This document shows positions 3,736 through 58,937 of a stretch of DNA of 64,000 bases, piece after piece. Source of the DNA: Elusimicrobiota bacterium (GTDB taxonomy: Bacteria; Elusimicrobiota; Elusimicrobia; Elusimicrobiales; UBA9959); NCBI GenBank assembly GCA_037137395.1, contig JBAXKK010000002.1:31881-95880 (forward strand). The letters are read 5' to 3'. The position numbers and the translations under genes are program-made. The notes under the pieces are model-generated. The model had not been told where the DNA came from and searched no databases. It saw only the letters and a list, made by a program, of their open reading frames with translations. Positions within the stretch are counted from its first letter, which is position 1; the number at the start of each line of letters is the position of its first letter.

Positions 3736-4950
3736 TCAACCCTTAGGCAGAGGCGAGCGAACGGGGGAAGGTTCCTCACTTACGGCCATAGCCGCAGCGA
3801 AACCGGCGATGGCTAGAAGTGATGCGGCCATAAAAACTGATTTGTAGCCATAAGCGGCCCAAAGTATACCGCCCAACGCCGGCATCAGCATCGAGACCGC
3901 GTGATCCATGGTAACACCCATCGACAATGTCGGGGCTATATCAGATTTATGCACTGCCAGCTTATTAAGGTATGTGGTACGCGCTATGCGCGTGGCGAAC
4001 ATCAGGCTGTCCAGTATAAACAGCGCGTATAAAAACGGCCTGAAAGTTGAGAAGGCGAAACCGCCGCATATTATCAGCAGAATAAGCGCGTCCGCTATAA
4101 ACATTTTACGCTCGCCAATTTTGTCTACGAGCACGCCGAAGGCCTGCCGAAATACCACTCCCAGGAAATAGGCGGTCATAGACAGCGCCGCCATAATGGC
4201 CGGGTTCGCGCCATAAACCGTCACCAGCACCCACGGCGCGAAGGTTAGAAATATCTGTTTTCGCGCCCCAAATAGTATATTCAGCAGATAAAACCATCTG
4301 TATTTCCATCTAAAAACAAAACGTTTACCGCCGGCAACAGCGTCCTCTCCGTCTTCTTTCATTCGCGAAAAAAGAAAAGCCGAAACCACCGAGGCCAGCG
4401 CCGCCGCCAGGAAAGCCCACTGATAAAGCTTCGGGGCCGCCGTCTTCGCGAGCAGCCATACCAGCCCGGCGCCGGCTATGGCCGCGAAATTGGTTATGCC
4501 GCTTATCTGGCCCAGCCTGCGCCCGTGCCCTCCCTCCCTGGCGAAGCGCAGGCCCATCACGCTCTCCACAGTCATAAAAAGGTGACCGCCGGTGCTCCAC
4601 AGAAGCATCCACACCAGCATCAAATGGTACGACGGCGACAGGAAACCCAGCCCCGCCACGCCCACCGCGGTAAGCAAACTTGTTATAACCGCCCATTGCC
4701 GCACCGGCAAAGCCGCAAGCCCGCCGGTGACAAAAATAAGCATAAAGCCGGGGAACTCGCGCGGGAACTCCAGGAAGCCGCGCTGGCTGGCTGACATCCT
4801 GAAAGAGTCGTTTAGGTAGTTGTTGAAAGCTGAAGAGATGATGCCGGAATTTATTCCCAGAAAGAACACACCGGCAAGGAAAGCCTTTAGAGCGGGGTCG
4901 GCATTGTTCCACCGGCCATATATTTTAGAGGCGTACAATGTTAGAGGCAT
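3736..4950 (-). CDS. MFS transporter
   Basis: 404-aa ORF with about 12 hydrophobic segments and MFS-like loops. The annotated ATG and first 10 codons lie inside a 16-nt repeat array, so the start is uncertain. Confidence 0.65.
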   Translation of the reverse strand: MPLTLYASKIYGRWNNADPALKAFLAGVFFLGINSGIISSAFNNYLNDSFRMSASQRGFLEFPREFPGFMLIFVTGGLAALPVRQWAVITSLLTAVGVAGLGFLSPSYHLMLVWMLLWSTGGHLFMTVESVMGLRFAREGGHGRRLGQISGITNFAAIAGAGLVWLLAKTAAPKLYQWAFLAAALASVVSAFLFSRMKEDGEDAVAGGKRFVFRWKYRWFYLLNILFGARKQIFLTFAPWVLVTVYGANPAIMAALSMTAYFLGVVFRQAFGVLVDKIGERKMFIADALILLIICGGFAFSTFRPFLYALFILDSLMFATRIARTTYLNKLAVHKSDIAPTLSMGVTMDHAVSMLMPALGGILWAAYGYKSVFMAASLLAIAGFAAAMAVSEEPSPVRSPLPKG

Positions 4951-5050
4951 AGCAGTCTGGAGGTAAAGCAGTTTAGATGTAAAGCAATTTAGCCAAATTG
5001 CCGGCGGGCTGTGCCTCTAAGTTGCTAGACGGCTTTGCGTCTAAATTGCC
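4925..5050. repeat. 8/16-nt periodic word array (TTAGAGGC / GCCTCTAA family), two inverted arms
   Basis: ttagNNNN words at 4925, 4941, 4957, 4973 and 4989 (exact 16-nt phase). Inverted words gcctctaa at 5013 and gcgtctaa at 5037. Confidence 0.8.
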
Positions 5051-5261
5051 AGTTTTATTTCCAGGATACGGTCAACTCTAAAAATCCATTCTCCATGTCG
5101 GTCGAGCCAGAAACAATCCAGACCAACGCCCCCCCCCTCACGGAAACCCGGCGATAAAACCTTTCCGCAATTATACCATTTAGGCGCACCAGCCAAAGTG
5201 ACGGAGCGGCCCTGTAATATTTTTGCCCTGCGACGCAGTTGTTATCTATAATCAGAAGCAT

Positions 5262-6473
5262 ATGAATATCTCCAGATTTAAAATTATCGCGATACTGCTC
5301 GCGGTCTTCGTGGCGGGCGCGGGGGTATTCGCCTATATAAAATATAAGAAGTTTTCCGGCTATCTCATAGAACAGATAAATTCACAGACTGGCAAGAAAC
5401 TTGGGCGACAGGTTAAATTTAAAAAAATATCTTTTTCACCATTGGAAGGCGTTGTAATAGACGAGCCCTGCGTCTCCCGGGCGCCTAACTTCACAAAGGG
5501 CAATTTCTTTTGCGCGGCGCGGGCCGTGATACGGCCGGAGCTCGACCAGTTGATGAAGAACCGCCTGTATTTCGCGAACATTGAGCTTGAAAAACCGGTG
5601 GTAAAGATCCGGGAAACCGGAGGCAAATGGGATTTTGAAGATCTACTGGCCCTGCTGCCAAAAACTTCCAAGGGGCTCTACATAACCTGGAACGCCCGCA
5701 AACTGACGCTTAAGGAAGCGACACTGGAAATGGATTTAGGCTCTTCCGGCAACTCGATAGCTTTTGAGAACGCCGATCTCACATTGCTTCACTACTCCGA
5801 CCTGGCCGGGAATTTCTCGTTAAGTTTGAGCGGCGACCTGAAGACCATCCTTCAGGGGCAGCTGGTAACTGCTAAAACCTCTTTTAGGACCGACCTCAAT
5901 TTTGAATACACAGGGCTGACCTCCGCTTACGGCGGGGTGGAATTCAGCGACGCGGCCATGGGCGCCGCCACGCTTAGAAAAGCCTCCCTTAACTGGGAAC
6001 TATTTAACATACACAAGCCGGCGCCGGAAAAGAACTATACCGCCGGAGCTAAGGCGGAAGGGCTTTTCATCCCGGCCCAGAGTTGCGGCGCCTCACGGTC
6101 GGTTAACAGCGCCCTGGCGCTGCTCTCCGAAATTATGGGTAAAGCGAGCCCAAGATGCGAAGACATAGAGATGACCAGTCTGGCGCTGGATTTTGCCCTG
6201 AACGACGGCGCGCTGCGCGTAAAGCAACTGAACCTGGACACAAATTTTCTGAATCTAAAAACCACATATGAGCTTAACGGCCCGGCCGGCACCGTGGATA
6301 TGGCGCTAGCCGCCTCCTCCGGCGAAAACAAACTGCGCCTTACGGCCAAAGGCGCTATGGATAAACCCGAAATACTGCCGGTTATGTCCGTCACCCTTAA
6401 CCGCAAATTGATCGGTGTCGTGCGTGATATCAACGCCGCATTCTTGAAAGCATTCCCGATTGCTGGCAAGTGA
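5262..6473 (+). CDS. membrane-anchored AsmA-like protein
   Basis: ORF 5223..6473. Start chosen at MNISRFKIIAILLAVFVAGAG (N-terminal TM helix). The AsmA-family call rests on architecture and weak sequence similarity. Confidence 0.45.
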   Translation: MNISRFKIIAILLAVFVAGAGVFAYIKYKKFSGYLIEQINSQTGKKLGRQVKFKKISFSPLEGVVIDEPCVSRAPNFTKGNFFCAARAVIRPELDQLMKNRLYFANIELEKPVVKIRETGGKWDFEDLLALLPKTSKGLYITWNARKLTLKEATLEMDLGSSGNSIAFENADLTLLHYSDLAGNFSLSLSGDLKTILQGQLVTAKTSFRTDLNFEYTGLTSAYGGVEFSDAAMGAATLRKASLNWELFNIHKPAPEKNYTAGAKAEGLFIPAQSCGASRSVNSALALLSEIMGKASPRCEDIEMTSLALDFALNDGALRVKQLNLDTNFLNLKTTYELNGPAGTVDMALAASSGENKLRLTAKGAMDKPEILPVMSVTLNRKLIGVVRDINAAFLKAFPIAGK

Positions 6474-6488
6474 CAGGAGAAAAAAGAA

Positions 6489-7853
6489 ATGTCTAAAAAA
6501 GTCCTTATCATCGGCTCAGGACCCGCCGGCTATCCGGCAGCTTTACGACTGAAGGAACTGGGGGCCGAACCTACAATCGTGGAATCCTGGGATTTTGGCG
6601 GCACCTGCCTAAATCGCGGCTGCATCCCTTCAAAATCACTGCTTGACGTCGGATACCGGGTCCAGTCCATGGATGTGCTGAAAGGATTGATGCCCAACGG
6701 CAAAACCCTTGATTTCAACCCTAATATGCTCTCCTGGGATAAAATAAAGGCCCGCCGCTCAGCCGCCGTGGAAAAACTCCGCACCTCGCTTGAAAAACTG
6801 TTTCAGATGAAAAAAATTGAGGTAATGCGCGGCAAAGCGGCGTTCACCGGACCGAATGAAGCGACCATCGCCACGACCGCGGGCCCTGTAGTCAAAAGTT
6901 TCGATTTCGCCATCATAGCTTCCGGCACAAGGCCGGGGTTTCCCCCGCCTTTTGACGCTTTCAGGGCGCAGCTGACCGATTCCGACCGCGTATTCGATCT
7001 GGCGAAGTTCCCCAAATCCATCACAATCGTCGGCGGCGGCGTCATCGGGCTTGAATTCGCCTGTTTCTTCAATTCGCTGGGCGCGGAGGTGTCGATCGTG
7101 GAGCTTATGCCCAACATCCTGGCCGGAGAGGATGACACTGTTGTGCGAACGCTTAAAACTTCTTTTGAGAAACGCGGCATAAAATTTTATCTCGGCAAAA
7201 AAACCGCCGGAGTGGAAATCGGCGCCGGAATGAAAACCCTTATATTGGACGACGGCTCAAAGATCGTATCGGAAGAAGTGCTGGTAGGCGCGGGACGATA
7301 CGCGGATCTTTCCCAATTTGGCCTTGAGAACCTAGGCCTGAAGTGGGACCGTAAAGGCGTAAAGGTCAACGCTGGCATGCGCACCGAGCTGGAAAATATC
7401 TATGCAGCCGGGGACATCAACGGCATTTCGCTGCTGGCTCATTCCGCCACCCGGCAGGGCGAAATAGCGGCTGAAAATATTATGGGCGCGAGCCGCGTAT
7501 TTGACGAGGGGATCGTTCCCAAATGCATTTACACCTGGCCCGAGGTGGCTACTGTAGGCATAAACAAAGCCCAGGCCGAAATAGGTGGGCTTGCCGTCAA
7601 AACTTCCCGGGCGTATTTTCTCGGCATAGGCAAGGCCGTGACGCACGATGAAACGGAAGGCTTCGCCCAGATAGTTTACGACGCGGCCGATGAGACTATC
7701 CTGGGCGCCCAGATAGTGGGCGGGACAGCCACCGAGCTGATACATCTGCTGGCAGTGGCCGTCAAGTTCAAGCTGAAGCGTCAGGACATGCGTGAGATCA
7801 TCTACGCTCACCCCACAATGGCTGAAGTTATACACGAGGCGCTCAATAAGTAG
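6489..7853 (+). CDS. lpdA: dihydrolipoyl dehydrogenase
   Basis: 454 aa. GSGPAGY FAD motif, redox-active GGTCLNRGCIPSK, second GGGVIGLE motif and a C-terminal dimerisation domain. Confidence 0.9.
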   Translation: MSKKVLIIGSGPAGYPAALRLKELGAEPTIVESWDFGGTCLNRGCIPSKSLLDVGYRVQSMDVLKGLMPNGKTLDFNPNMLSWDKIKARRSAAVEKLRTSLEKLFQMKKIEVMRGKAAFTGPNEATIATTAGPVVKSFDFAIIASGTRPGFPPPFDAFRAQLTDSDRVFDLAKFPKSITIVGGGVIGLEFACFFNSLGAEVSIVELMPNILAGEDDTVVRTLKTSFEKRGIKFYLGKKTAGVEIGAGMKTLILDDGSKIVSEEVLVGAGRYADLSQFGLENLGLKWDRKGVKVNAGMRTELENIYAAGDINGISLLAHSATRQGEIAAENIMGASRVFDEGIVPKCIYTWPEVATVGINKAQAEIGGLAVKTSRAYFLGIGKAVTHDETEGFAQIVYDAADETILGAQIVGGTATELIHLLAVAVKFKLKRQDMREIIYAHPTMAEVIHEALNK

Positions 7854-8044
7854 AGGCACAGCCATTTAGCAACTTAGATGCAAAGCAGGCTGGCAATTTA
7901 GACGCAAAGCAATTCAGTAATTTAGCTAGAGCGCTTTGCTTCTAGATGGCTTTACATCCAAACAGCTTTGCCTCTAAGTTGCTTTACATCCAAACTGCTT
8001 TGCCTCTAAATTGCTTTGCCGCTAGACCGCTTCGCATATCCATT
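7850..8044. repeat. 8/16-nt periodic word array, large imperfect palindrome
   Basis: Right arm is seven units in exact 16-nt phase starting 7933, 7949, 7965, 7981, 7997, 8013 and 8029 (gctttRc NtcNaaN NN). Left arm carries inverse ttagNNgc words on an 8-nt grid from 7850. Fills the whole lpd-xth gap. Confidence 0.85.
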
Positions 8045-8046
8045 TT

Positions 8047-8817
8047 ATGTCTATAAAAATTTTATCTTGGAACGTTAATGGCTACCGGTCAATCCTTAAT
8101 AAAGGGTTCAGGGAATTCCTTGCAACCTCAGGGACAGATATCATTGGTCTACAGGAGATAAAAGCCAGTCCGGAGCAGCTGAAGCCGGAAGACATGGCTT
8201 TCGCGGGCTATGAGTCGCGATGGAACCCCGCCGAACGGAAAGGTTACAGCGGCGTAGCGGCTTTTTTCAAAACCCAACCGCTCTCAGTTTCCTGCGGGAT
8301 GGGTATCGGGGAATACGACATCGAAGGCCGGGTCATATCGCTGGAGTATCCGGCCTTTCATCTCTTAAATGTTTATTTTCCTAACGGCGGACAGGGCCCA
8401 GAACGACTGGCCTATAAGCTTAATTTTTATGAGGCTTTCCTGAAACATATCGAGACCCTGCGCAAAACCGGCAAGGCTGTTATTTTCTGCGGAGATATCA
8501 ACACAGCTCACCGGGAAATAGATTTGGCCAGGCCTAAAGAAAACGCAAACAATTCCGGCTTCATGTCCATTGAACGGGCCTGGCTGGATAAAATTACCGC
8601 CATGGGCTGGGTGGACACCTTTCGCCTTTTTCATCCGGAACCTGACAATTACACCTGGTGGGACTATAAAACGCGCGCCCGCGAACGCAATGTAGGCTGG
8701 CGAATAGATTACTTTTTTATAAATAAAGAGAAGCAAGATCTCGTAAAAGAGGCATTCATACTCCCGCAGATCCAGGGCTCCGACCACTGCCCCGCAGGAT
8801 TAACTCTGGACCTGTGA
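8047..8817 (+). CDS. xth: exodeoxyribonuclease III
   Basis: 256 aa. ILSWNVNG, LQEIK, CGDINTAH and SDHCP motifs of the EEP/ExoIII family. Confidence 0.9.
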   Translation: MSIKILSWNVNGYRSILNKGFREFLATSGTDIIGLQEIKASPEQLKPEDMAFAGYESRWNPAERKGYSGVAAFFKTQPLSVSCGMGIGEYDIEGRVISLEYPAFHLLNVYFPNGGQGPERLAYKLNFYEAFLKHIETLRKTGKAVIFCGDINTAHREIDLARPKENANNSGFMSIERAWLDKITAMGWVDTFRLFHPEPDNYTWWDYKTRARERNVGWRIDYFFINKEKQDLVKEAFILPQIQGSDHCPAGLTLDL

Positions 8818-8831
8818 CCTGACAGAGATTT

Positions 8832-8878
8832 ATTGCGAGTGAATGGACCATCATATTTTCCAATTTGCCACTCGCAAT
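8832..8878. repeat. inverted repeat attgcgagtg / cactcgcaat (CGAGTG word family)
   Basis: Perfect 10-bp arms at 8832-8841 and 8869-8878. Followed by a second hairpin atgcttaa/ttaagcat. Confidence 0.7.
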
Positions 8879-8922
8879 TAAAAGTTGTATGCTTAAAACT
8901 TAAGCATGTTTGAGGGGGAAAA

Positions 8923-9333
8923 ATGAATAACTTAAAGTTGCCTATCGTACTACTGGCGTCGCTGCTGTTGGCAGCCTGCTCTGCGAATCTGCGTAAAAAG
9001 GTGCCGCCACTGGAGGATGTTCTTCACGCCGGGCCTTTAGCCAAAATAGTGGTTTATTCCGGAAATGTGGCCCTGGGGCAGAGCGGTCCGTCCGCAGACG
9101 GAATAACTCTCTCTATAGGCGGCACAGCCGCGCTCAGCGCGCAAGGCCGCGACGTCAATAACCGGCCCATAAAAATATCCCCTGCATGGACCGCCAGTAA
9201 GCCTGAGCTGATAGAAATAACTCCCCGCACCGGAGATATAGTTCTGGTGAAAGGGCTCAGGGAAGGCACCGCCGAGATCGTGGCTGAATACGACGGCGTA
9301 AAAAAAACCATTGAGTACGTTTTTATAAAATGA
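8923..9333 (+). CDS. lipoprotein with bacterial Ig-like (Big_2) domain
   Basis: 136 aa. Lipobox LLAAC at the signal peptide end. C-terminal Big_2-like region (LREGTAEIVAEYDGVKKTIEYVF). Confidence 0.55.
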   Translation: MNNLKLPIVLLASLLLAACSANLRKKVPPLEDVLHAGPLAKIVVYSGNVALGQSGPSADGITLSIGGTAALSAQGRDVNNRPIKISPAWTASKPELIEITPRTGDIVLVKGLREGTAEIVAEYDGVKKTIEYVFIK

Positions 9334-10613
9334 AATTCATCTGTGAATACGCGTTATCGCGCGGTTCAGGCCCTGTCGAAAGCGGACCCTGCTCCGTAGC
9401 GCTTTCCGAAGAGGTCCTGACGCTTTTACCAAGCGGCGCCCAGCCGCTTATCATTCCCTGGGAAGAAATCACGATGTTCTCGCTTGCGGATTTCAAGGCG
9501 GATCTTGCCCTGAGGCAGACCTCTTTGACAATAAGTTCTCTCGGATACAAATTCGAGGACTTCGCGCGTCACGCCGCCAGACTGCGCAACGAACGACTGC
9601 TGAAACTTAGCTTGGCGGAGGAACCATTAAGAACATCCATGATCGAAGCGGATTTGACATACAAATCTCCCGCCATGGAATTCACCTGCCGCTGCGAATT
9701 GCGCATATATGAAACCTCTCTCGTGGCTCTGCCCGAAACTGCCGACTTCCTTCGCCTCCCTTTCCGTTGTATCACAGAATTGAAAGAAGACGATTTCAGC
9801 GGTGAGCTAACCGGAGAAAGCGGGGAACACTGGTTTTTAAGCGGACTTGGCCGTAATTGTGATCATTTCAGGGATTCCTTACACGCGCAGATGGCGGACC
9901 TGGACCTATTCGCGCAGAAAGCACTGGGAGCAGCACTGCCTGGGGTTTCGCCTCTTGATTTGCGCGCCCTGTCCGCGCTCTCGCGCGAGGGACGCCTGAT
10001 CCCTCTCACGGAGCTGGATAAAATCAGACCCGGGGCCTGGGCCGCCATCGAAAAACGCATATGCTCAAACAAGGCCGACGCCGCTGAATATAATTTCCTT
10101 AAAAAGATTTCTGACACGGAGAAAACGGCCTTTGGCGTAAAAAAAGGCGTTATGGGGAAACTTAGCGGGGACCATTACATATTCCTGTTCTGCGCGAAAA
10201 ATCTGTCACCGGTTGTCATGGTCGAATCTTTTCTGCTGGAACCGAAGAGCGAACACGCCACCGATAAAACGGCCACCTACATCTACCGCCTCCCCAACGG
10301 CGGAAAAGACCCTTGGGCGGACTTCCTTTCATTCTTCAACCGCGCCATGACAGCGGTGAATTTCAGACGCATGCCGGTACTGTTATCCGATGCCCGCCTG
10401 GCCGACCCAAAGAACGCGATTTACGCCGGTGCGTTGGCGCGAGTGCCTGAACTGAAAACCCTGAGGCAGCTATATGTGGGGCGGGCTATACATACCGAAA
10501 CGGAACAGTGGGAAACGACCGTGTACGATCTTCTGCAATTCGCTGTCAAGAATCCGGCCCCGTGCGCCAGATGGAGAGCGAGTGAAGAAGAAGTTAAAGA
10601 GGAGGAACAATGA
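9330..10613 (+). CDS. hypothetical protein with internally duplicated N-terminal domain
   Basis: 427 aa. ATGA overlap with the upstream and downstream genes. Two similar ~75-aa segments (see findings). No family recognised. Confidence 0.5.
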   Translation: MKFICEYALSRGSGPVESGPCSVALSEEVLTLLPSGAQPLIIPWEEITMFSLADFKADLALRQTSLTISSLGYKFEDFARHAARLRNERLLKLSLAEEPLRTSMIEADLTYKSPAMEFTCRCELRIYETSLVALPETADFLRLPFRCITELKEDDFSGELTGESGEHWFLSGLGRNCDHFRDSLHAQMADLDLFAQKALGAALPGVSPLDLRALSALSREGRLIPLTELDKIRPGAWAAIEKRICSNKADAAEYNFLKKISDTEKTAFGVKKGVMGKLSGDHYIFLFCAKNLSPVVMVESFLLEPKSEHATDKTATYIYRLPNGGKDPWADFLSFFNRAMTAVNFRRMPVLLSDARLADPKNAIYAGALARVPELKTLRQLYVGRAIHTETEQWETTVYDLLQFAVKNPAPCARWRASEEEVKEEEQ

Positions 10614-10942
10614 CGGGCTATAAACATCCGTGCCGCTATTGCGGCGAACTTGTCCCGCCGGACGCCAGTATATGTCCGGCCTGCGCCAAAATTAATCCGT
10701 ACGGAGATCTCCGCTGCCACAAATGCCGGGCGCCTGTAAAAGAAACATGGAAGGTTTGCGCCTCCTGCGGACTCAAGCTTGAATTAGAATGTCCAAAATG
10801 CGCGGGGGTTGTTTTTTTCGGGGACTATTGTTCAAAATGCGGAACGCGCCTGACCGTAACCTGCCCGCACGGTTGCGGAGAAGAGCAGCCGCCAGTTTCG
10901 AAAAACTGCCGTAAATGCGGAAAAAAATTAGGAGGAAAATAA
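10610..10942 (+). CDS. multi-zinc-ribbon protein
   Basis: 110 aa with eight CxxC-type cysteine pairs, giving about four zinc ribbons. Confidence 0.6.
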   Translation: MTGYKHPCRYCGELVPPDASICPACAKINPYGDLRCHKCRAPVKETWKVCASCGLKLELECPKCAGVVFFGDYCSKCGTRLTVTCPHGCGEEQPPVSKNCRKCGKKLGGK

Positions 10943-10943
10943 T

Positions 10944-11609
10944 ATGTCTAACACAATAGGCTTCACAAGCAACTTCGCCGACAACAGCACCGAGGCCGGC
11001 TTCCAGTTCACCTTTTACTGCGACACATGCAAGGAAGGTTATAAGACCCGCTTCACCGAGTCCAAAACCTACAAAAAAAAGAAATTTTTTAAAGGGTTGG
11101 GTGATGTCATAAGCGCAGTGGCACAGATGGCGGGGAAATCCAGCATAGGTTACGGAATAGAGCGCGGCACCGACGCCATCAGCGAAAAATTCACCGGCAT
11201 GTCTCCGGAGTGGCACAAGGAACACGAGACCGCTTTCGAACTGGCGCAGAACGAGGGCAAGGGATATTTTAAACGCTGCCCAAAGTGTCATAAATGGGTA
11301 TGCGAAACATGTTGGAACGAGCAGGAAGGTCTTTGCGTGACCGATGCCCCGAGGGCTAATGTAGAAATTGCAGCGGCCAAATCCAAAAAAATGGTAAAAG
11401 ACATAGCGGCGGCCGCGGAAGCAACGCCGGTATTCACAGGAAAGATCGAAAGCAAACAAACCATCTGCCCTAAATGCGACAAACCCGCCGGTGAAGGTAA
11501 ATTCTGCGGCAGTTGCGGGGCCACGCTAGCCATGCCAAAATGCCCTAAATGCGGCGCGCAGAGCCAGCGGGGAGTCAAATTCTGCGGTGAATGCGGCGGT
11601 AAGATATAA
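10944..11609 (+). CDS. zinc-ribbon domain protein
   Basis: 221 aa. CxxC pairs at the N-terminus, in the middle (CPKCHKWVCETC) and three pairs at the C-terminus. Starts 2 nt after the upstream stop. Confidence 0.55.
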   Translation: MSNTIGFTSNFADNSTEAGFQFTFYCDTCKEGYKTRFTESKTYKKKKFFKGLGDVISAVAQMAGKSSIGYGIERGTDAISEKFTGMSPEWHKEHETAFELAQNEGKGYFKRCPKCHKWVCETCWNEQEGLCVTDAPRANVEIAAAKSKKMVKDIAAAAEATPVFTGKIESKQTICPKCDKPAGEGKFCGSCGATLAMPKCPKCGAQSQRGVKFCGECGGKI

Positions 11610-11612
11610 AGA

Positions 11613-11843
11613 TTAACCTGAATCCTGCAGTTGAAGATAGATTTTCCGCCACACAGCTTCGTCGGACCCGCCGGATTGTATTGGCGGGTATTGGGAAATC
11701 CGGGAACAGAATTATTCTGCAGGATTCCCCGCACAGCGGGCTGAAGGCCCAGCGCTATGCGCGCCCGGCCCGAAGAGGTGTATACCTCCCGAATGGGCGC
11801 CCGCTACGCGGGCGGAAAGTTGCAACTGCAACTTTCAGGTTAA
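11613..11843 (+). mobile_element. MITE-like non-coding element, copy A (231 bp)
   Basis: 10-bp terminal inverted repeats ttaacctgaa (11613-11622) and ttcaggttaa (11834-11843). Aligns end to end with the reverse complement of 36732..36917. Confidence 0.75.
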
Positions 11844-18667: not shown

Positions 18668-18846
18668 TTGCGGATACCGGCAAATAGATATCTCCTACCC
18701 TTTTCCACATCCCTATAACCGGCTTTAATAGGAGTATAATATTTATTTATGGGGGTATTCTTGCCGAAGCGTTATTATTTTGTTAAATTCTATAAAAGGA
18801 CTTCCGCATTCAAGTTACTCCATAAACGAAAGCCCTCGGAGAAAAC

Positions 18847-19965: not shown

Positions 19966-20016
19966 CGCGACATACAAAACTTAGTTTCATTCAACTAGCC
20001 AGGAGATAATAAAAAT

Positions 20017-20406
20017 ATGCCTAAACAGGAAGAAGCGAAGTATACAAAAACGCATGAATGGATTTTAGTACAGGGGCAGGAAGCCACCGTGGGGCTGTCC
20101 GACCACGCCCAGCACGAGATGGGCGATATAGTGTTTGTGGAACTGCCAAAATCCGCACAGAAGGTTGAAAAGGAAAAGCCCTGCGCCGTGGTAGAATCGG
20201 TCAAGTCAGCCTTTGATATATACGCCCCCGTTTCCGGCCAGATTTCGGCCTTAAACGACGAAGTCACCAAGGATCCCGCCCTGATAAACCAATCTCCCAT
20301 GGATAAAGCGTGGCTTTTCAAAATACAACTTTCTGACACCGATCAGGTCAAAGATCTGATGGACTGGCCCGCCTACCAGGAATTCATAAAGCAGGCAGCG
20401 CATTAG
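20017..20406 (+). CDS. gcvH: glycine cleavage system H protein
   Basis: 129 aa. Lipoyl-lysine motif VESVKSAFDIYAPVSG. Confidence 0.92.
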   Translation: MPKQEEAKYTKTHEWILVQGQEATVGLSDHAQHEMGDIVFVELPKSAQKVEKEKPCAVVESVKSAFDIYAPVSGQISALNDEVTKDPALINQSPMDKAWLFKIQLSDTDQVKDLMDWPAYQEFIKQAAH

Positions 20407-20428
20407 GACAGCGCTAAAGCGCTGTCCT

Positions 20429-20586
20429 GCCATATGCCATAAGCTATAGGCCATACGCGGAAAGTACAATTATACGCCTTAAGCTTTATCGTATTATGAA
20501 GCGCATCATTGAAAGTCCTTTTACTACTTAAATTTTAAGTTTCTGCGTATGGCCTATAGCGTATAGCTTATGGCAATAGCAATAAC
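20429..20586. repeat. heptamer array GCCNTAN with inverted arm (long imperfect palindrome)
   Basis: gccatat gccataa gctatag gccatac gcggaaa at 20429-20463. Reverse-complement arm ctgcgtatggcctatagcgtatagcttatggcaatagc at 20543-20580. Confidence 0.85.
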
Positions 20587-20609
20587 CACACTAACTACAG
20601 GACCAAATT

Positions 20610-21947
20610 ATGTTCATCGCCAACACTCAAAAAGACCGCGAGGAGATGCTCCGAACCATCGGCGTTTCCTCCATTAAAGACCTCTTAAAACAGGTCCCAG
20701 AAAAATTCCTATACCCCGCCTTTAGCCTTCCGGAGACCTCTCTCGACGAGCAGCAGACCGCGCGCCGCATGAAAACTCTCGCCGCGGCTAACACGGCGCA
20801 CCTAAGCTTCCTGGGCGCCGGCGCCTACGAACGCTACATCCCCGCGGCGGTAAAGTCCCTCATCTCAAGGGGCGAATATCTTACCGCTTACACCCCATAT
20901 CAGGCCGAAGCCAGCCAGGGCATACTGCAGACCATATATGAATACCAGAGTTCAGTCTGCGCTCTTTACGCCATGGACTGCGCCAACGCTTCAATGTACG
21001 ACGGAGCCAGCGCTTTCGGCGAGGCCGTGCGCGCAGCGGTTCGCATCACCGGCAAAAAAAAAGTGCTCTGCCAGGAAACCCTCAACCCTCAGTACCTGAC
21101 TACGCTTAAAACCTATTTTTCCAATTCCAGCGATTACCAGTTCATCACCATACCTGCCAGGGATGGTATTATGGACGCCGATAAGTTGGCTGTCCTCCTG
21201 GGCCCGGACACGGCCTGCGTGGCCTTCCAGACACCAAACTTCTTCGGCCTTATGGAAGACGCGCCGAAGATCTCGGAGATGGCGCATAAAACCGGCGCGC
21301 TTGTGGTGGCTGCGGCAGATCCGGCCAGCCTGGGCCTGTTTATCCCTCCGGGCGACTACGGGGCGGACTTCGCGGTTGGTGAAGGCCAGAGCCTCGGACT
21401 TCCTTTAAGCTACGGCGGCCCTTATCTCGGAATTTTCGCGTGCAAAAAAGAATATGTGCGCCAGATGCCAGGCAGAATAGCCGGCATGACAAAAGATAAG
21501 GACGGCAAGCGCGGCTTCGTGCTTACCCTCCAGGCCAGGGAACAGCACATACGACGTGACAAGGCGGCTTCCAATATCTGTTCCAATGAAGCCCTCTGCG
21601 CTTTAAGCGCCACCATCTACCTGGCGCTCCTCGGTCCGGAAGGTCTGAAGGAACTGGCGCGCGCCAACGCCGCAGCCGCGGCTTTCACGGCGGAGAAGCT
21701 CTCCGGAGTAAAAGGCGCAAAGCTCAAGTTTAACGGGACATTCTTCAATGAGTTCGTGCTGGAAATTAAAGGCGACGCCGCGGAACTCAGGGAGAAAGTG
21801 CTGATAAAGGAACATATAGACATCGGGCTGCCGCTCAAAGACCTTTACCCCGCCCTCGGCCCCGGCGCGCTGCTAGTATGCGCCACCGAGACCAAGACCG
21901 AAGCGGATATACTCAGGCTTGTGAAAGCGCTGGGAGAGAACATATGA
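20610..21947 (+). CDS. gcvPA: glycine dehydrogenase (decarboxylating) subunit 1
   Basis: 445 aa with typical GcvPA sequence (YTPYQAEASQG). Confidence 0.92.
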   Translation: MFIANTQKDREEMLRTIGVSSIKDLLKQVPEKFLYPAFSLPETSLDEQQTARRMKTLAAANTAHLSFLGAGAYERYIPAAVKSLISRGEYLTAYTPYQAEASQGILQTIYEYQSSVCALYAMDCANASMYDGASAFGEAVRAAVRITGKKKVLCQETLNPQYLTTLKTYFSNSSDYQFITIPARDGIMDADKLAVLLGPDTACVAFQTPNFFGLMEDAPKISEMAHKTGALVVAAADPASLGLFIPPGDYGADFAVGEGQSLGLPLSYGGPYLGIFACKKEYVRQMPGRIAGMTKDKDGKRGFVLTLQAREQHIRRDKAASNICSNEALCALSATIYLALLGPEGLKELARANAAAAAFTAEKLSGVKGAKLKFNGTFFNEFVLEIKGDAAELREKVLIKEHIDIGLPLKDLYPALGPGALLVCATETKTEADILRLVKALGENI

Positions 21948-23395: not shown

Positions 23396-23412
23396 GTAAG
23401 GGCGCCGCGCCC

Positions 23413-23515
23413 GCCATTAGCCATATGCTCTAGGCCATACGCAGAAACACTGTTAGTTGCCATAAGCATTCACTTCTAAACTTTTCTGCAAATGGCAAAT
23501 GGCCAACGGCTTACA
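23413..23515. repeat. heptamer array GCCNTAN with inverted arm
   Basis: gccatta gccatat gctctag gccatac gcagaaa at 23413-23447. Inverted arm tgcaaatggcaaatggccaacggcttac at 23488-23515. Confidence 0.8.
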
Positions 23516-23528
23516 GCAACAACGTAAT

Positions 23529-24227: not shown

Positions 24228-24234
24228 CAGCAAT

Positions 24235-24311
24235 GGCGAGTGATTAGTAACTAGTGGCGAGAAAGAAACCCCTTTACCAACAGCCACACGCTACTCACTG
24301 ACCACTAGACG
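24235..24311. repeat. heptamer array NNNTAGT family with inverted arm
   Basis: ggcgagt gattagt aactagt ggcgaga at 24235-24262. Inverted arm ctactca ctgacca ctagacg at 24291-24311. Confidence 0.8.
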
Positions 24312-24338
24312 ATAGCGAAGTCCCAAGGAGAAAAACTT

Positions 24339-30633: not shown

Positions 30634-30668
30634 AAAAAAACGGCGGGGAATATTCCCGCCGTTTTTTA
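30634..30668. terminator. bidirectional rho-independent terminator
   Basis: aaaaaaa cggcggg gaatatt cccgccg tttttt, between convergent rlmI and the response regulator. Confidence 0.75.
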
Positions 30669-31131: not shown

Positions 31132-31203
31132 TGCCGCGAGTTGGGATCGAACCAACGACACCTGGTTTTTCAGACCAGTGCTCTACCACTGAGCTACCGC
31201 GGC
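31132..31203 (-). tRNA. tRNA-Phe (anticodon GAA), CCA not encoded
   Basis: Reverse complement GCCGCGG TA GCTC AGTGGTA GAGC A CTGGT CTGAAAA ACCAG GTGTC GTTGG TTCGATC CCAAC TCGCGGC A folds as a canonical cloverleaf. Confidence 0.92.
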
Positions 31204-33642: not shown

Positions 33643-33650
33643 GAAAAACC

Positions 33651-33732
33651 GCCATAGGCCTTAAGCCATACGCCATAAGCAGAGCGGCTGCCAAGGTATA
33701 ATATGGCCTAAAGCATACGGCATATGGCAATA
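33651..33732. repeat. heptamer array GCCNTAN with inverted arm
   Basis: gccatag gccttaa gccatac gccataa gcagagc at 33651-33685. Inverted arm (rc: gccatat gccgtat gctttag gccatat) at 33695-33732. Confidence 0.85.
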
Positions 33733-33762
33733 ATTCACCTCTGTAATATTTAGGAGACATTT

Positions 33763-34339: not shown

Positions 34340-34445
34340 GTTAATGGCGAGTGAAAGCCGCAGTAATTAATGGATAATGGCTGGGCACGGAAGTATCCGG
34401 AACTGCCGCGCTGTCTTACTGCCGTACTGTCACACTGACGACTAA
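34340..34445. repeat. degenerate word repeats (aatggcgagtg; actgNNN words), includes a 16-mer related to the mocA insert
   Basis: tcttactgccgtactg at 34414-34429 is 14/16 identical to the tandem unit at 48893-48924. Less regular than the other arrays. Confidence 0.55.
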
Positions 34446-35048: not shown

Positions 35049-35120
35049 TGGCTGAGGCCGGAGCGCCCGGATCAAAAAGATTGCCGCCAGCCGGGATGAG
35101 AAATACAGGGTGATCCCTGG

Positions 35121-35156
35121 AAACCCCCTTTTTTAAGAAAAGGGGGTTTTTATTTT
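35121..35156 (+). terminator. rho-independent terminator
   Basis: aaaccccctttt ttaag aaaagggggttt followed by a T-rich tract. Confidence 0.7.
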
Positions 35157-36917: not shown

Positions 36918-36936
36918 AAAACGCAAACAGTGAAAC

Positions 36937-37008
36937 GTAAAGAGTAAAGAGTTATAAGACATGAACTTTTTGCTCTTTACGATTTACGATTCCCGCTTTA
37001 CGCTCTTT
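36937..37008. repeat. heptamer array GTAAAGA / TCTTTAC with inverted arm
   Basis: gtaaaga gtaaaga gttataa at 36937-36957. tctttac gatttac gattccc gctttac gctcttt at 36974-37008. The right arm encodes the C-terminal tail (KSVKRES) of the Mo subunit. Confidence 0.8.
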
Positions 37009-39305
37009 ATCGCCGCAAGAACTTTCTCGGGAGTGAACGGCGAAGAAAACAGCCGCGCGCCCACGGCGTCACGCACTGCGTTGGCCACCGCGGGCAGCGG
37101 GCCGTTGATGCCTATCTCAGAAACAGACTTGGCTCCAAAAGGCCCGTTGGGCTCAAACGTAGGAATAAGGATGGTTTTAATAGGCGGCATATCGGCGGTG
37201 TTAAATATTTTATAGCGCCGGAAGCTGGCGTTAAGCGGCGTGCCATTCGAGGAGAACTCCATCTCTTCCGAGAGGGTGTGGCCTATCCCGTTCAGCACGG
37301 CCCCGTCGTTCTGGCCTTCAGCCAGTTCCGGATTTATGGCGGTGCCGCAGTCTACGCAGGAAATATAATTAAGTATCGTTATCTTGCCTGTCCCCGTATC
37401 AACTTCCACTTCCACGAAATTGGCCGCGAAAGGCGGCGGAGAAGTGTGGGCGTAATGGGAGGCTGAAGCCACGATCTGGTGCTGGTCATAATAATAAAGC
37501 GAGGTATTGGCCACCTCGGAAAGGCCGCAGGCCGCTCCGTCTTTCGCTAAAACCTTTCCACCCTCAAGGCGCAGGTCATCAGGCTTCCTGTCAAGGATCT
37601 TCGCCGCCACCGCTATAATCATTTCGCGGACCTTTTCCGCCGTCTTCTTTACGGCGTTGCCGGAAATGAACGTAGTTGATGAGGCGTAAGCCCCCACATC
37701 GAAGGGCGTGAGATCAGTGTCGGATGAATAAACTATGACATCTTCGGCTTTTACTCCGAGGACCTCGGCCGCTATCTGGGCGAGGATGGTGTCGGACCCG
37801 GTGCCAAGATCCGCGGCGCCTACCATCAGGTTGAAGGAACCGTCCTCGTTCATCTTAAGCGTGGCGCTGGCCATGTCTACCTCGGGGATGCCGGAGCCCT
37901 GCATCATACAGGCCATACCGAGCCCGCGCCTCAATTGACCGCTCTGGTTTTTATATTTTTTCTTTTTCTCGTGCCACTTTATAGCCTTAAGCCCCGCCTC
38001 TATGCCGTCATAAAGACCGATAGACGTGATGACCTGCTCAACGCCCTCACGGCCCTCCCCCATGGCTTTAAACACCGGCGAGCCCTCGCCCAGGCGTATG
38101 TAGTTTTTTTTGCGGAACTCCACGGGGTCCATGCCGATCTTTTCCGCCATTATATCCATCTGCGACTCCCAAGCGAAGAAACCCTGTGTAGCGCCGTAGC
38201 CGCGGTAAGCGCCGGAAACCGGCAGATTGGTATAAACGCTCTTGCCTATGAATTTTATATTGTTCGCCACCCTGTACATCGGCAGGGTGTGGGATCCCGA
38301 GCACATCATAACTGTCAGCGCGTGCGAGCCATAGGCGCCGGTATTGAGCGTTATGTCCATCTCGGCGTCTGTTATCGTACCGTCTTTACGAACCCCTGTC
38401 TTTAGCCGCACGATGGCGGGATGTCGCGTGCGCGATGAAATAAAAGTTTCCCTGCGCGTGTATTCAATTTTAACAGGCTTCCCGGTTTTAAGCGTAAGGG
38501 CGGCCGTAATATCTTCAAGCAGAACTTCCTGCTTGGAGCCGAAGCCGCCGCCGATGCGCGGCTTTATAACCCGGATCTTCTTGACGGGCATCCTGAGCGC
38601 CTGGGCCACGATGCGCCGGACGTGAAACGGGACCTGCGTTGAAGTCCTGATGACCAGGCGGCCAAAATGGTCGAAACTTGTTATAACCGTATGCGGCTCG
38701 ATGGCGCAATGCTGGAGATAGGGCATTTTATAGGTATGCTCTATCACAAAATCGGCGTCCTTAAACCAATCTCCGTTCCTGACTTCAAAATCAAATTTGG
38801 CGGCGATATTATGCTTCGCGTCCGGAATATTTTTCGCGTCTTCCTCGTCATGAATTACGGGCGCGCCGTCCTTAACGGCCTCAAAAACATCAAAGACGGC
38901 CGGCAGGATCTCGTAGTCAACCTTTATCAGCTTCAGCGCCGCGTCCGCGGCCTCGGGAGTCTCGGCGGCCACGGCGGCCACCCGGTCGCCAACGAAGCGC
39001 ACCTTGCTGTCAAGCACATATGAATCGTAAGGTGAAGGCTCAGGATACCCCTGACCGGCCGTAGTGTGCGGCACCCGGGGAACGTTCTTATAGGTAAGAA
39101 CGGCTTTCACCCCAGGGACCTTTTCGGCCTCCCTGGTGTCTATTTTTTTGATCCGGGCATGGGCGTAATGGCTCCACAGGATACGGCCGTAAAGCATCCC
39201 GTTGATGTCCACATCGTCGGTGAAGACCGGTTCGCCGCAGGCCAGGCCCAAAGCGTCCATCTTCAGCACGCGCTTGTTAACTACTTTCAAATTTTCAGTT
39301 TCCAT
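36984..39305 (-). CDS. xanthine dehydrogenase family molybdopterin-binding large subunit (set 2)
   Basis: 773 aa. Ald_Xan_dh a/b hammerhead plus Mo-binding domains (GGGFGSK, GEPP-like FGAKSVSE). Confidence 0.88.
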   Translation of the reverse strand: METENLKVVNKRVLKMDALGLACGEPVFTDDVDINGMLYGRILWSHYAHARIKKIDTREAEKVPGVKAVLTYKNVPRVPHTTAGQGYPEPSPYDSYVLDSKVRFVGDRVAAVAAETPEAADAALKLIKVDYEILPAVFDVFEAVKDGAPVIHDEEDAKNIPDAKHNIAAKFDFEVRNGDWFKDADFVIEHTYKMPYLQHCAIEPHTVITSFDHFGRLVIRTSTQVPFHVRRIVAQALRMPVKKIRVIKPRIGGGFGSKQEVLLEDITAALTLKTGKPVKIEYTRRETFISSRTRHPAIVRLKTGVRKDGTITDAEMDITLNTGAYGSHALTVMMCSGSHTLPMYRVANNIKFIGKSVYTNLPVSGAYRGYGATQGFFAWESQMDIMAEKIGMDPVEFRKKNYIRLGEGSPVFKAMGEGREGVEQVITSIGLYDGIEAGLKAIKWHEKKKKYKNQSGQLRRGLGMACMMQGSGIPEVDMASATLKMNEDGSFNLMVGAADLGTGSDTILAQIAAEVLGVKAEDVIVYSSDTDLTPFDVGAYASSTTFISGNAVKKTAEKVREMIIAVAAKILDRKPDDLRLEGGKVLAKDGAACGLSEVANTSLYYYDQHQIVASASHYAHTSPPPFAANFVEVEVDTGTGKITILNYISCVDCGTAINPELAEGQNDGAVLNGIGHTLSEEMEFSSNGTPLNASFRRYKIFNTADMPPIKTILIPTFEPNGPFGAKSVSEIGINGPLPAVANAVRDAVGARLFSSPFTPEKVLAAIKSVKRES

Positions 39306-39323
39306 AAAATTATCTCCGATTTT

Positions 39324-39392
39324 CAGGTTACAGGGGTCAGGTTTCAGGCTACAGATAAAAAATTCCGCCTGCTACCTGCCACCTGTTACCTG
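39324..39392. repeat. heptamer array CAGGNNN / NNNCCTG inverted arms
   Basis: caggtta caggggt caggttt caggcta cagataa at 39324-39358. Inverted heptamers end in cctg at 39371, 39378, 39385 and 39392. Confidence 0.85.
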
Positions 39393-39895
39393 GCGCCTTT
39401 TAACTTTTTCGCGGCGGCTTTTACCGCCGCGATCTGTTTTACATAGCCGGTGCAGCGGCATAGATTTCCATCAAGATATTTCCGGATTTCCTCTTCGGAC
39501 GGTTCGGGATTGGCGTCCAGCAGATGTTTAGAGGACAGGATCATGCCCGGAATACAAAAGCCGCACTGCACAGCCCCGGCTTCAACAAAAGCTTCCTGGA
39601 GCGGATGGGGGTTCTGGACCGTGCCCAAGCCCTCTATCGTTGTGATCTCACTTCCATGAGCGGCGAACGCCGGTATAAGACAGGCAAGCGCCGGCTTACC
39701 GTTAAAAATAACGGTACATGAGCCGCAGTCGCCGGTATCGCAGCCTTTCTTTACGCTCTTGTAGCCGTGGCGCCGCAGGGCGTCCAGCAGAAATTCGGTA
39801 TTCTTCACGCTGAAACTTTTTTTTACGCCGTTAATTCCCAGGCATATCTCAAAGATCCCATTAACGGCTTCGAGTCTGGCGTTCTCTTTTTTCAT
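39386..39895 (-). CDS. (2Fe-2S)-binding small subunit of molybdenum hydroxylase (set 2)
   Basis: 169 aa. CDTGDCGSCTV and CGFCIPG...CRCTGY motifs. Confidence 0.9.
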   Translation of the reverse strand: MKKENARLEAVNGIFEICLGINGVKKSFSVKNTEFLLDALRRHGYKSVKKGCDTGDCGSCTVIFNGKPALACLIPAFAAHGSEITTIEGLGTVQNPHPLQEAFVEAGAVQCGFCIPGMILSSKHLLDANPEPSEEEIRKYLDGNLCRCTGYVKQIAAVKAAAKKLKGAR

Positions 39896-41615: not shown

Positions 41616-41628
41616 AGTGATTAAGTCA

Positions 41629-41733
41629 ATTCAAGATTCAAGATTCAAGAGATGCCAGCAATTTTTAATCCGCACTTTTAAACTTCAAATCCTTAGTCCC
41701 AAATCTTCAATCTGGAATCTTGAATCTTCAATC
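41629..41733. repeat. heptamer array ATTCAAG x3 with inverted ATCTTNA x5 arm
   Basis: attcaag at 41629, 41636 and 41643. atcttca atctgga atcttga atcttca atcctat at 41703-41737. Confidence 0.85.
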
Positions 41734-42258
41734 CTATATATCTGTTTTGGCTTTTTCCACGGCGCTTATTACCTTTTCGTAGCCGGTACAGCGGCACAGA
41801 TTGCCGGTCAGTCCGCGCTTGATATCTTCCACTGTAGCGTGAGGATTTTCTTTTAAAAGCGCTTCCGACGCAATAATCAGGCCGGGCGTGCAGAAGCCGC
41901 ACTGCACGGCGCCTTCTTCCATAAAAGTTTTCTGCAGGGGATGCAAGCCGCCGTCACGGCCTTTAAGTCCTTCTATAGTGATTAAACGCTTGCCCTGCAG
42001 CTGAACAGCCATCATCAGGCAGGAGTTGACGGCTTTGCCGTCAACGAGCACCAGACAGGCGCCGCACTCACCTTCACCGCAGCCCTCCTTAGTCCCTTTA
42101 AGACCGAGGTCCAGGCGAATAAATTCGATAAGGGACCTGGAGGAATCCAGGTCCCGTTCCACCTTTTCTCCATTCACAAAACATTTGAGGGAGAACTTAG
42201 CGCGGTGCGTTATTTTTTTATTCTTTTCGGTCACGCGTATGCCTGTCCTAAAAATCAA
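41734..42258 (-). CDS. (2Fe-2S)-binding small subunit of molybdenum hydroxylase (set 1)
   Basis: 174 aa. CGEGECGACLV and CGFCTPG...CRCTGY motifs. The annotated start overlaps the upstream gene by 11 nt. Confidence 0.88.
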   Translation of the reverse strand: MIFRTGIRVTEKNKKITHRAKFSLKCFVNGEKVERDLDSSRSLIEFIRLDLGLKGTKEGCGEGECGACLVLVDGKAVNSCLMMAVQLQGKRLITIEGLKGRDGGLHPLQKTFMEEGAVQCGFCTPGLIIASEALLKENPHATVEDIKRGLTGNLCRCTGYEKVISAVEKAKTDI

Positions 42259-45926: not shown

Positions 45927-45990
45927 TAAAACGGAAAGAAAGTTGCTTTACCCTTTCCGCTTCCCGTTTTCCGCTTTACGACTTTCCGCC
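45927..45990. repeat. heptamer array CTTTNCG (ctttacc ctttccg cttcccg ttttccg ctttacg actttcc)
   Basis: Six units in exact 7-nt phase at 45946-45987, with a short inverse word aaaacggaaagaaag at 45927-45941. Most of the array lies inside the XdhC 3' end and encodes ...ESRKAENGKRKG. Confidence 0.8.
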
Positions 45991-47311: not shown

Positions 47312-47352
47312 GTTGTAATCGTAGAATCCAGAATATTATATAACTTATGTGA

Positions 47353-51769: not shown

Positions 51770-51800
51770 TGCTAAAAATTATAGAATCTATTGTAATCCG

Positions 51801-51892: not shown

Positions 51893-51901
51893 GAGAAAAA
51901 T

Positions 51902-58935: not shown

Positions 58936-58937
58936 CT

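Follow-up and report, generated by a model that had tools for sequence, protein, structure and literature searches.

A heptamer-periodic hairpin between gcvH and gcvPA of an uncultured Elusimicrobia bacterium as a probable copy of a dispersed, REP-like intergenic palindrome family

The gcv operon considered here lies in a 64,000-nt stretch of DNA (the window; positions 31,881 to 95,880 of contig JBAXKK010000002.1, assembly GCA_037137395.1) from an uncultured Elusimicrobia metagenome-assembled genome (MAG), and all coordinates are positions within this window. Pfam assignments give the gene order on the plus strand as gcvT (GCV_T), gcvH (GCV_H), gcvPA (GDC-P), gcvPB (GDC-P/GcvP2_C), and an lplA-like gene. 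The feature under study, a heptamer-periodic palindrome in the 203-nt spacer between the gcvH stop codon (20406) and the gcvPA ATG (20610), is therefore inside the gcv operon, as the initial annotation of this DNA had it. The nearest genomes are uncultured Elusimicrobia MAGs, in agreement with the non-cyanobacterial origin that was first read from the gene content. Apart from one single-nucleotide polymorphism, the spacer sequence is the same in four other public assemblies and is therefore not an assembly artifact.

The spacer begins with a small GC-rich hairpin across the gcvH stop codon (20405-20428, plus strand; GGACAGCGC-TAAA-GCGCTGTCC, with perfect 11-nt arms), which abuts the large palindrome. 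The left arm of the latter (20429-20463) consists of five phased heptamers, GCCATAT GCCATAA GCTATAG GCCATAC GCGGAAA (nhmmer E = 5e-11), and the right arm (20541-20580), TTCTGC GTATGGC CTATAGC GTATAGC TTATGGC AATAGC, is the reverse complement of the left (E = 1e-11). Between them lies a loop of ~77 nt (20464-20540), which folds into small internal stems; within it, the 17 nt at 20472-20488 match 20432-20448 at 82% identity and form an incomplete third copy of the arm. Tandem Repeats Finder placed period-7 arrays at 20428-20455 and 20545-20571 (~4 copies, 80% matches), and an inverted-repeat search returned 47-nt arms that are 81% complementary (20428-20474 and 20529-20575, with 54 nt between them). 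The predicted RNA fold of 20404-20612 reaches -77 kcal/mol, vs -44.3 ± 4.0 in dinucleotide shuffles (z = -8.2; equaled by 0 of 200 shuffles). Both the strict heptamer phase and the imperfect palindrome described from the sequence were thus confirmed. When one arm was slid along the other, complementarity was 30/34 in the main register, 22/29 at -7, 18/27 at +7, and 14/20 at +14, compared with 10-25% off register; these peaks fall exactly every 7 nt, and therefore the earlier proposal that the stem could pair in several registers offset by 7 nt is correct.

Arrays of this period occur well above chance expectation. With a criterion of at least four units and at least 75% lag-7 identity, the window holds 8 period-7 arrays, against a mean of 0.15 over 20 dinucleotide shuffles (~50-fold), which substantiates the claimed heptamer signal; under the same criterion, the other periods from 5 to 16 gave 0-1 arrays each. 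Intergenic DNA makes up ~8% of the window yet contains all of the period-7 arrays (8/8), autocorrelation at lags 7, 14, and 21 is elevated only there (0.287 vs 0.248), and, among the spacers of at least 40 nt, ~13 in the 64 kb carry periodic arrays. A control set of 77 unrelated loci (1.29 Mb) contained 19 period-7 arrays, 11 of them from two loci. These two, L018 (Pyrinomonadaceae, 5236-9992) and L064 (Ardenticatenales), carry 7 and 4 arrays per 21 kb, and the L018 arrays are inverted pairs built of other words (GCAAATC, GGTAAGT, and GGCACTC); such dense arrays mean that the phenomenon is not confined to Elusimicrobia.

A profile search found exactly seven arms of the gcvH-gcvPA type, here called the GCCATAN family, in the window, all at E ≤ 1e-7 (780-816, 20425-20464, 20538-20579, 23410-23447, 23481-23522, 33648-33684, and 33702-33733). 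Inverted pairs are present at three of the four loci: in the gcvH-gcvPA spacer, at 23410-23522 between gcvPB (stop at 23395) and the lplA-like gene, and at 33648-33733 between the rubrerythrin and peroxiredoxin genes. The remaining locus (786) is single-armed, with the arm at 780-816 (E = 4e-9) lying at the 3′ end of a HhH-GPD glycosylase gene without an inverted partner and upstream of a canonical U-tract terminator (~879-925). The initial annotation had already placed the family at these three other loci, and that part stands; it was incomplete, as GCCATAN is only one of at least seven periodic families. Further copies do exist beyond the window, where the same arm profile matches other contigs of related MAGs (L128, L253, L263, L226, L261, L291, L219, L088, and also L086); nhmmer gave at least 15 GCCATAN arms in related contigs besides the seven in the window.

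Aligned in register, nine arms from five loci follow the order TTTCTGC-GTATGGC-CTAWAGC-NTATGGC-WTATGGC, in which GC recurs without change every 7 nt and the third position of the unit is always A. Judged from this alignment, the GCCATAN arm is a defined composite unit of ~35 nt, made of five heptamers in fixed order, and not a free-running microsatellite. Since the order of the variant units is common to the arms, whole ~35-nt arms were probably copied between loci. The arms are therefore closer to repetitive extragenic palindromic (REP) elements than to the short tandemly repeated repetitive (STRR) sequences with which they were initially compared; that comparison is apt insofar as these are tandem heptanucleotide repeats, and it fails at the fixed-order ~35-nt units. 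The same invariance of GC and A at fixed unit positions, with the other positions variable, could also be explained by protein binding at the DNA level, the phased GC..A every 7 bp forming a lattice for a nucleoid, topology, or regulatory protein. Bacterial interspersed mosaic elements (BIMEs) are known to bind IHF and gyrase, and the lack of strand preference in folding, together with the presence of the same word in distant phyla (both described below), would fit such a lattice. However, the unrelated words and the periods of 7, 8, or 16 nt would demand many proteins, no candidate protein was identified, and a lattice has no need of an inverted layout; we regard this explanation as very unlikely.

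Beside GCCATAN, the window contains at least six further families of periodic hairpins, namely CAGGKNN, ATTCAAG, GTAAAGN/CTTTACN, GGCGAGT, the 8-nt ACTGYCGY, and the 16-nt TTAGAGGYAAAGCART. Their turnover was followed in a MAG of ~90% nucleotide identity, in which two stretches of a single contig (L001 and L086) are syntenic with 10.4-53 kb of the window. Non-periodic spacers are mostly 0.74-0.94 identical between the two genomes (median ~0.9) and equal in length, the exceptions being 28.5k (0.50 identical) and 47.2k, a convergent spacer (47162-47352) that is ~550 nt longer in L086, probably through a small gene present in one genome and absent from the other. In contrast, spacers with periodic hairpins are only 0.35-0.77 identical. 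The gcvH-gcvPA element is kept in L001, minus 21 nt (three outer units) of the left arm and 7 nt (one unit) of the right arm, and its stem there carries three uncompensated mismatches and no compensatory changes, a pattern that reads as decay rather than compensation. The small hairpin at 20405-20428 is retained in L001 with an extra A:T pair inserted on both sides (GGAACAGCGC-GAAA-GCGCTGTTCC), and its structure is better conserved than that of the adjoining large palindrome.

At several other spacers, it is the family itself that differs. The gcvPB-lplA spacer (23.4k), which carries GCCATAN arms in the window and in L219, has an AGGGT heptamer hairpin in L001, and the 33.6k spacer, also GCCATAN in the window, carries the 16-nt family in L086. 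The 16-nt family likewise stands in L086 where the window has a CAGGKNN heptamer hairpin (39318-39396, in a minus-strand operon for a xanthine-dehydrogenase-type enzyme, where it separates the 2Fe-2S and molybdopterin subunit genes). A second Mo-hydroxylase has its 2Fe-2S and FAD subunit genes separated in the window by an ATTCAAG/CTTGAAT hairpin (41625-41740), a word confined to this one locus; L086 has a single GCCATAN arm at this site, and the more distant L088 has a full GCCATAN pair. A single CTTTACC/CTTTCCG heptamer array in a divergent spacer (45946-45980) is matched in L086 by the 8-nt ACTGCCGC family, and the spacer between the convergent glnA-like and Mo-hydroxylase large-subunit genes, ~250 nt long with a GTAAAGA/TCTTTAC hairpin (36930-37010) in the window, is 20 nt in L086. 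The GGCGAGT/ACTNNNN hairpin that separates the lplA-like gene from a small AsnC-type gene (24228-24325) has a homologous but rearranged version in L001 (61% identity).

The same alternation of empty and occupied spacers extends to more distant genomes. In four further Elusimicrobia contigs found through GcvH homologs (82-89% identity), each spacer of the gcv operon is either minimal or bears a periodic hairpin; in L215, for example, the gcvT-gcvH spacer is 13 nt, compared with 173-226 nt in L213, L217, and L219, and the gcvPB and lplA genes overlap. The families in these spacers (GCCATAN, AGGGT, CAGTGGN, GAAGGCT, AGGTATA, AAATCGT, and the 8-nt CGGCTAGN) are arranged differently in each genome, and an AGGGT element with the asymmetric center GCAGAAAY-AAGGAACTCCTT has one orientation in L215 and the reverse in L219. 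An apex motif, AAGGANNTCCTT (AAGGA-NN-TCCTT), was found 5 times in 344 kb of Elusimicrobia loci, vs ~0.3 expected, always at the exact center of a periodic hairpin and with arms of three families (8-nt, AGGGT, and GCCATAN); the sites are L003 10819, L215 5427, L219 9108, L226 288, and L263 2557, and there is none within the window itself.

Whether the element is purely a product of its own locus can be judged from these comparisons. A microsatellite that arose in situ, by neutral local polymerase slippage of a 7-nt unit, with convergent similarity between loci, would account for the whole-unit indels, the many unrelated heptamer words, and the restriction of ATTCAAG to one locus, and it would be in keeping with the general bacterial bias toward heptamers (Mrazek 2007, as summarized in PMC4679880). 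It does not readily account for the unit order, variant positions, and TTTCTGC cap common to nine arms at five loci and to other contigs, for families common to several genomes yet present at different spacers, or for a conserved asymmetric center in either orientation. Slippage alone also leaves the mirrored second arm unexplained, and the data already hint that copies from different loci are the closest relatives of one another. For these reasons, we consider an origin solely in situ distinctly unlikely.

We instead favor, with a confidence slightly above even, the reading that the gcvH-gcvPA feature is one copy of a dispersed family of REP/BIME-like intergenic palindromes that are selfish or near-neutral. 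The following steps are proposed: (i) arms built of tandem units would permit register-shifted pairing, and the slipped hairpins would gain or lose 7-nt units; (ii) one arm would serve as template for the other, which would maintain their similarity; and (iii) whole modules would spread from spacer to spacer by a copy or recombination mechanism, as selfish or near-neutral DNA.

The position of the hairpins bears on what they may do once transcribed. Most lie between co-directional genes, 3′ of a stop codon and 5′ of a Shine-Dalgarno sequence, and some in divergent or convergent gaps; three of the gaps fall within the gene set of a single enzyme (gcvH|gcvPA, 2Fe-2S|molybdopterin subunit, and 2Fe-2S|FAD subunit). 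Strong hairpins directly after stop codons, one of them in the convergent gap at 36.9k, could be taken for non-canonical intrinsic or bidirectional terminators that lack a U-tract. We consider this highly improbable: no U-tract was seen at any of the periodic hairpins in the window, while the same genome uses textbook bidirectional U-tract terminators elsewhere (~879-925, 30640-30668, and 35120-35155), and most copies separate subunit genes of one enzyme. At the gcvH-gcvPA hairpin in particular, the loop is 54-77 nt and there is no T run, which does not agree with an intrinsic terminator, and a consensus scan of 20000-21000 found no U-tract terminator and no promoter pattern. Rfam 15 at the gathering score matched only a tRNA in the window (31132-31203), and a permissive search added only plant miRNA hairpin models below threshold (31 bits vs 100).

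Because the modules stand within operons, have no U-tract, and leave the ribosome-binding site free, they are most likely transcribed in the polycistronic mRNA as long double-stranded RNA (dsRNA) stems. Such stems would, by analogy with REP elements and with the Haemophilus influenzae hmw hairpin, act as barriers to 3′-to-5′ exonucleases or as RNase III substrates. Side effects of REP elements on mRNA stability are known, and an effect of the present modules on the relative stability of neighboring cistrons would likewise be a side effect and not the reason for their existence.

A stronger functional claim, made in the initial annotation, was that the array serves mRNA processing or differential expression of the gcv genes. 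In this form, the hairpin would be a dedicated intra-operon RNA element, selected to set the gcvH:gcvP ratio through processing, 3′-end protection, or partial termination. The H protein is classically required in excess over the P protein, as textbooks state, and the hairpin sits where such an element would act, past the stop codon of one co-transcribed gene and ahead of the ribosome-binding site of the next; the conserved structure of the small post-stop hairpin (20405-20428) points the same way. Against this stand the lack of conservation of the long stem at ~90% identity (three units lost, three uncompensated mismatches, and no compensatory pairs), the variation between genomes in which family occupies the gap, and the lack of any gap at equivalent sites in some relatives. 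The same modules also occur between subunit genes required at equal dosage and in divergent and convergent gaps. Moreover, the antisense strand folds better than the sense strand at 5 of 8 co-directional loci, and the comparison was equally mixed when repeated on relatives with crude gene calls; as sense strands fold no better than antisense strands, there is no G:U signature of RNA-level selection. A dedicated regulatory role is thus not supported, and we rate it as unlikely. Nothing points to special regulation at the gcv locus in particular, and a dispersed, labile element tolerated in the gap between stop codon and ribosome-binding site is best supported, a dedicated regulator of gcv expression less well. 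We also tried the idea that heptamer arrays are a device supplying stop codons in all three frames, and rejected it, given that many arms lack a stop in at least one frame.

Several observations weigh against the dispersed selfish or near-neutral family that we favor. The hairpin between the peroxiredoxin and desulfoferrodoxin genes (34340-34445, with 8-nt periodic arms of the ACTGYCGY family) shows, relative to L086, 4 compensatory, 7 one-sided, and 0 broken changes among 30 pairs, a count drawn from two sequences only and from a structure chosen by the same program. In addition, the gcvH-gcvPA gap holds a periodic or GC-rich hairpin in 6 of the 8 Elusimicrobia genomes examined. Both points speak for a dedicated element, and because of them a function may still exist; there is some evidence, though mixed, that pairing is under selection at some hairpins. 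As to mobility, single arms are not self-complementary, unlike classical REPs, Pfam found no transposase and no Y1/RAYT (REP-associated tyrosine transposase) domain among all 60 open reading frames (ORFs) of the window, and the swapped spacers show no target-site duplications or clean insertion boundaries, whole spacers being different. Loop sequences also differ completely between the copies in the window, unlike in a classical miniature inverted-repeat transposable element (MITE); the conserved center occurs only in some of the relatives' copies, and no duplicated flanks were seen. Finally, the close comparison covers one ~90%-identical relative and a handful of more distant contigs, not complete genomes, and what is said of transcription, of RNase III cleavage, and of mRNA stability is drawn wholly from position and analogy.

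A more ambitious interpretation starts from the apex motif. In it, the elements would be modular mobile cassettes shared across phyla, each built around a small conserved apex, AAGGARYTCCTT, to which TTTCTGC is often adjacent, and carrying on either side inverted arrays of 7-8-nt units that can be interchanged; a hypothetical enzyme would insert, extend, and exchange the cassettes specifically in the gap between stop codon and ribosome-binding site. We think this unlikely. If true, the cassettes would span Elusimicrobiota, Nitrospirota, Gemmatimonadota, Acidobacteriota, and other groups, and the heptamer period would be the footprint of the enzyme, giving a handle on why long simple sequence repeats (SSRs) of bacteria are heptamers.

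The cross-phylum distribution was surveyed by exact-word scans, for which ~1000 or more chance matches are expected in the 596 Gb of the genome collection, and a phased-GC test was used as array filter. The word matches listed are therefore mostly chance, and only enrichment among them, not copy number, can be used. Phased-array contexts made up 25 of 117 among the genome-collection matches listed, vs 1 of 23 in a viral control; among the matches listed, they cluster in Nitrospirota and Elusimicrobiota, and others come from Gemmatimonadales and additional groups. All 23 matches in the viral contigs were judged to be chance coding matches without arrays, and there is therefore no sign of a phage vector. 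In Nitrospira, too, the arrays form inverted pairs that follow a stop codon and precede the next ribosome-binding site. On Nitrospira/Nitrospirota contigs, the GCGTATGGCCTATAGC word stands in phased arrays right after stop codons (L221, L230, L235, L241, L258, L266, L271, L279, and L280), the GCCATAN arrays forming the downstream inverted arm, an arm order opposite to that in the window. L258 and L280 have longer flanks in common, which suggests a larger repeat.

The remaining hairpins of the window are a GTGGTTA GTGACTA GTGGCGA array (GGCGAGT-type) with a weak inverted partner between the amidohydrolase and DUF520 genes (58836-58937) and two hairpins with 16-nt periodic arms of the TTAGAGGYAAAGCART family. 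The latter, at 4935-5062 and, in a longer version after a dihydrolipoamide-dehydrogenase-like gene, at 7854-8036, flank a DUF748 gene together with that dihydrolipoamide-dehydrogenase-like gene.

Periodic modules also have practical consequences for annotation, as they create false start codons, can sit in frame within genes, and are hot spots of MAG assembly and annotation errors. The mechanically called start of the lplA-like ORF is the ATG at 23499, part of the ATGGC of a heptamer in the right hairpin arm; homology with four relatives indicates that the true start is probably the ATG at 23527 (ATGACTGAAGG). This start lies ~7 nt past the stem with no obvious Shine-Dalgarno sequence, and the layout is equally tight in L001, L213, and L219. 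An in-frame case is the array at 48893-48939 (16 nt × 2.7; ACTGYCGY/GACAGCAAGACAGTAC family) within a MobA-like NTP-transferase gene (48658-49347, minus strand), which adds ~37 residues relative to the Pfam profile and is reminiscent of the in-frame Rickettsia palindromic elements. The ~90% relative retains this array, with ~24 nt more of heptamer-like sequence alongside.

Some other intergenic stretches were noted in passing. In the spacer upstream of gcvT (18719-18846), not even a permissive Rfam search brought up a glycine riboswitch or any other known element; its 94% conservation in the ~90% relative points to a promoter or operator. A 46-nt direct repeat (51800-51893; two copies, 97% identical) extends into the start of a dihydropyrimidine-dehydrogenase-like gene at 51869; it is 87% conserved in the relative, does not resemble the periodic hairpins, and may be a regulatory duplication. 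Two stretches left uncalled by the crude ORF selection, 10614-10772 (92% conserved in the relative) and 11460-11680, look coding, with repeated Cys-x2-Cys zinc-ribbon-like codon patterns (TGCCCTAAATGCG...TGCGGCAGTTGCGG), and are probably parts of small zinc-ribbon proteins and not true spacers.

The phenomenon itself is robust and bears on an unexplained bias toward heptamers in bacteria. Tandem heptamers have been known in cyanobacteria since 1990 and as the commonest long simple repeat of bacteria since 2007, with no detailed study or settled function in the literature searched, part of which summarizes the original reports. Uncultured Elusimicrobia with the gcv operon form a graded series that lends itself to compact comparison: each spacer is vacant or holds a hairpin of one of a few periodic families, and genomes of 90% identity already differ by whole-unit indels and by the family present. 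This makes testable how such repeats originate and spread, whether an enzyme is needed, and what long intra-operon dsRNA stems do to mRNA. If the modules are merely selfish or near-neutral repeats, the finding would extend a known kind of repeat, with good documentation, to new hosts and a new form, but would reveal no new mechanism.

Among known systems, heptanucleotide repeats are the commonest class of long SSRs in bacteria, for which polymerase slippage has been proposed (Mrazek 2007, summarized in PMC4679880 and PMC4692102), and Calothrix is a described host of STRR heptamers (Mazel 1990, cited in PMC4692102). As far as these summaries go, the Elusimicrobia arrays agree with STRRs and long heptanucleotide SSRs in the broad sense, being tandem 7-nt units in intergenic DNA, at many loci, with several words per genome and strongly above chance. 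They differ in host and words and in being short, imperfect, nearly always palindromic, and dispersed as composite units. They do not fall under cyanobacterial STRR1-3 in the strict sense, given an Elusimicrobia host and words such as GCCATAN, CAGGKNN, and ATTCAAG.

The closest described arrangement is that of the GGGAATC heptamers of Xanthomonas, where 70-75 inverted pairs keep their position between species and vary in length (Rehm et al. 2015, PMC4692102). These too are intergenic tandem heptamers, many of them convergent arrays able to form a stem-loop; related species often retain the position while both length and sequence vary, and most are reported to be transcribed, with no assigned function (PMC4692102). 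However, Xanthomonas uses one G-rich word with G-quadruplex potential in arrays of up to 14 units, whereas the Elusimicrobia elements have several unrelated, non-G-rich words, short fixed-order arms of 4-5 units, further families with 8- and 16-nt periods, and single spacers in which one family has taken the place of another. A second heptamer word, TAACTGA, forms intergenic tandem arrays across distant phyla (Beggiatoaceae, cyanobacteria, and Bacteroidetes), with 169 direct sets and 1 inverted set and a proposed post-transcriptional role (PMC4679880). Those are direct repeats immediately upstream of start codons, whereas the Elusimicrobia arrays are inverted and follow stop codons.

In the literature searched, the only experimentally dissected heptamer-repeat hairpin is the (ATCTTTC)n hairpin in the 5′ untranslated region of H. 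influenzae hmw, which is cleaved by RNase III (PMC12721329). It resembles the gcvH-gcvPA element as a heptamer array with a variable number of units that forms an arm of a long hairpin, and the dsRNA stem is its functional feature. In hmw, only one arm is repetitive, its at least 10 units pairing with a G-rich stretch; the hairpin precedes a phase-variable adhesin gene in a pathogen, and cleavage of the transcribed hairpin by RNase III has been demonstrated. In the gcvH-gcvPA case, both arms are arrays, the genes are housekeeping genes, the stem is predicted and its transcription inferred, and the unit number differs from that in L001.

A further likeness is to REP, BIME, and REPIN (REP doublet) elements, the last described as mobile hairpins (PMC3116915). 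Both groups comprise dispersed ~35-nt intergenic repeats, inverted doublets that form long hairpins, intra-operon positions between stop and start codons, and a species-specific consensus with the same spacers nonetheless occupied in relatives (PMC3116915, PMC8266576). The dispersed consensus of ~20-40 nt and the inverted doublets are thus present, whereas the individually palindromic unit with GTAG/CTAC is not: classical REPs have GTAG at the 5′ end and a RAYT (Y1) transposase as partner, while the Elusimicrobia arms are not self-complementary, are heptamer-periodic inside, have no GTAG head, and are accompanied by no RAYT among the 60 window ORFs. Full-text literature searches returned no description of such repeats in Elusimicrobia or Nitrospira, and coexisting families, fixed unit order, and cassette-like replacement in orthologous spacers were not described in the literature searched. 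The hairpin between gcvH and gcvPA therefore belongs to a known kind of bacterial repeat, and what is new is its construction as a heptamer-built, REP-like hairpin module in a new phylum.

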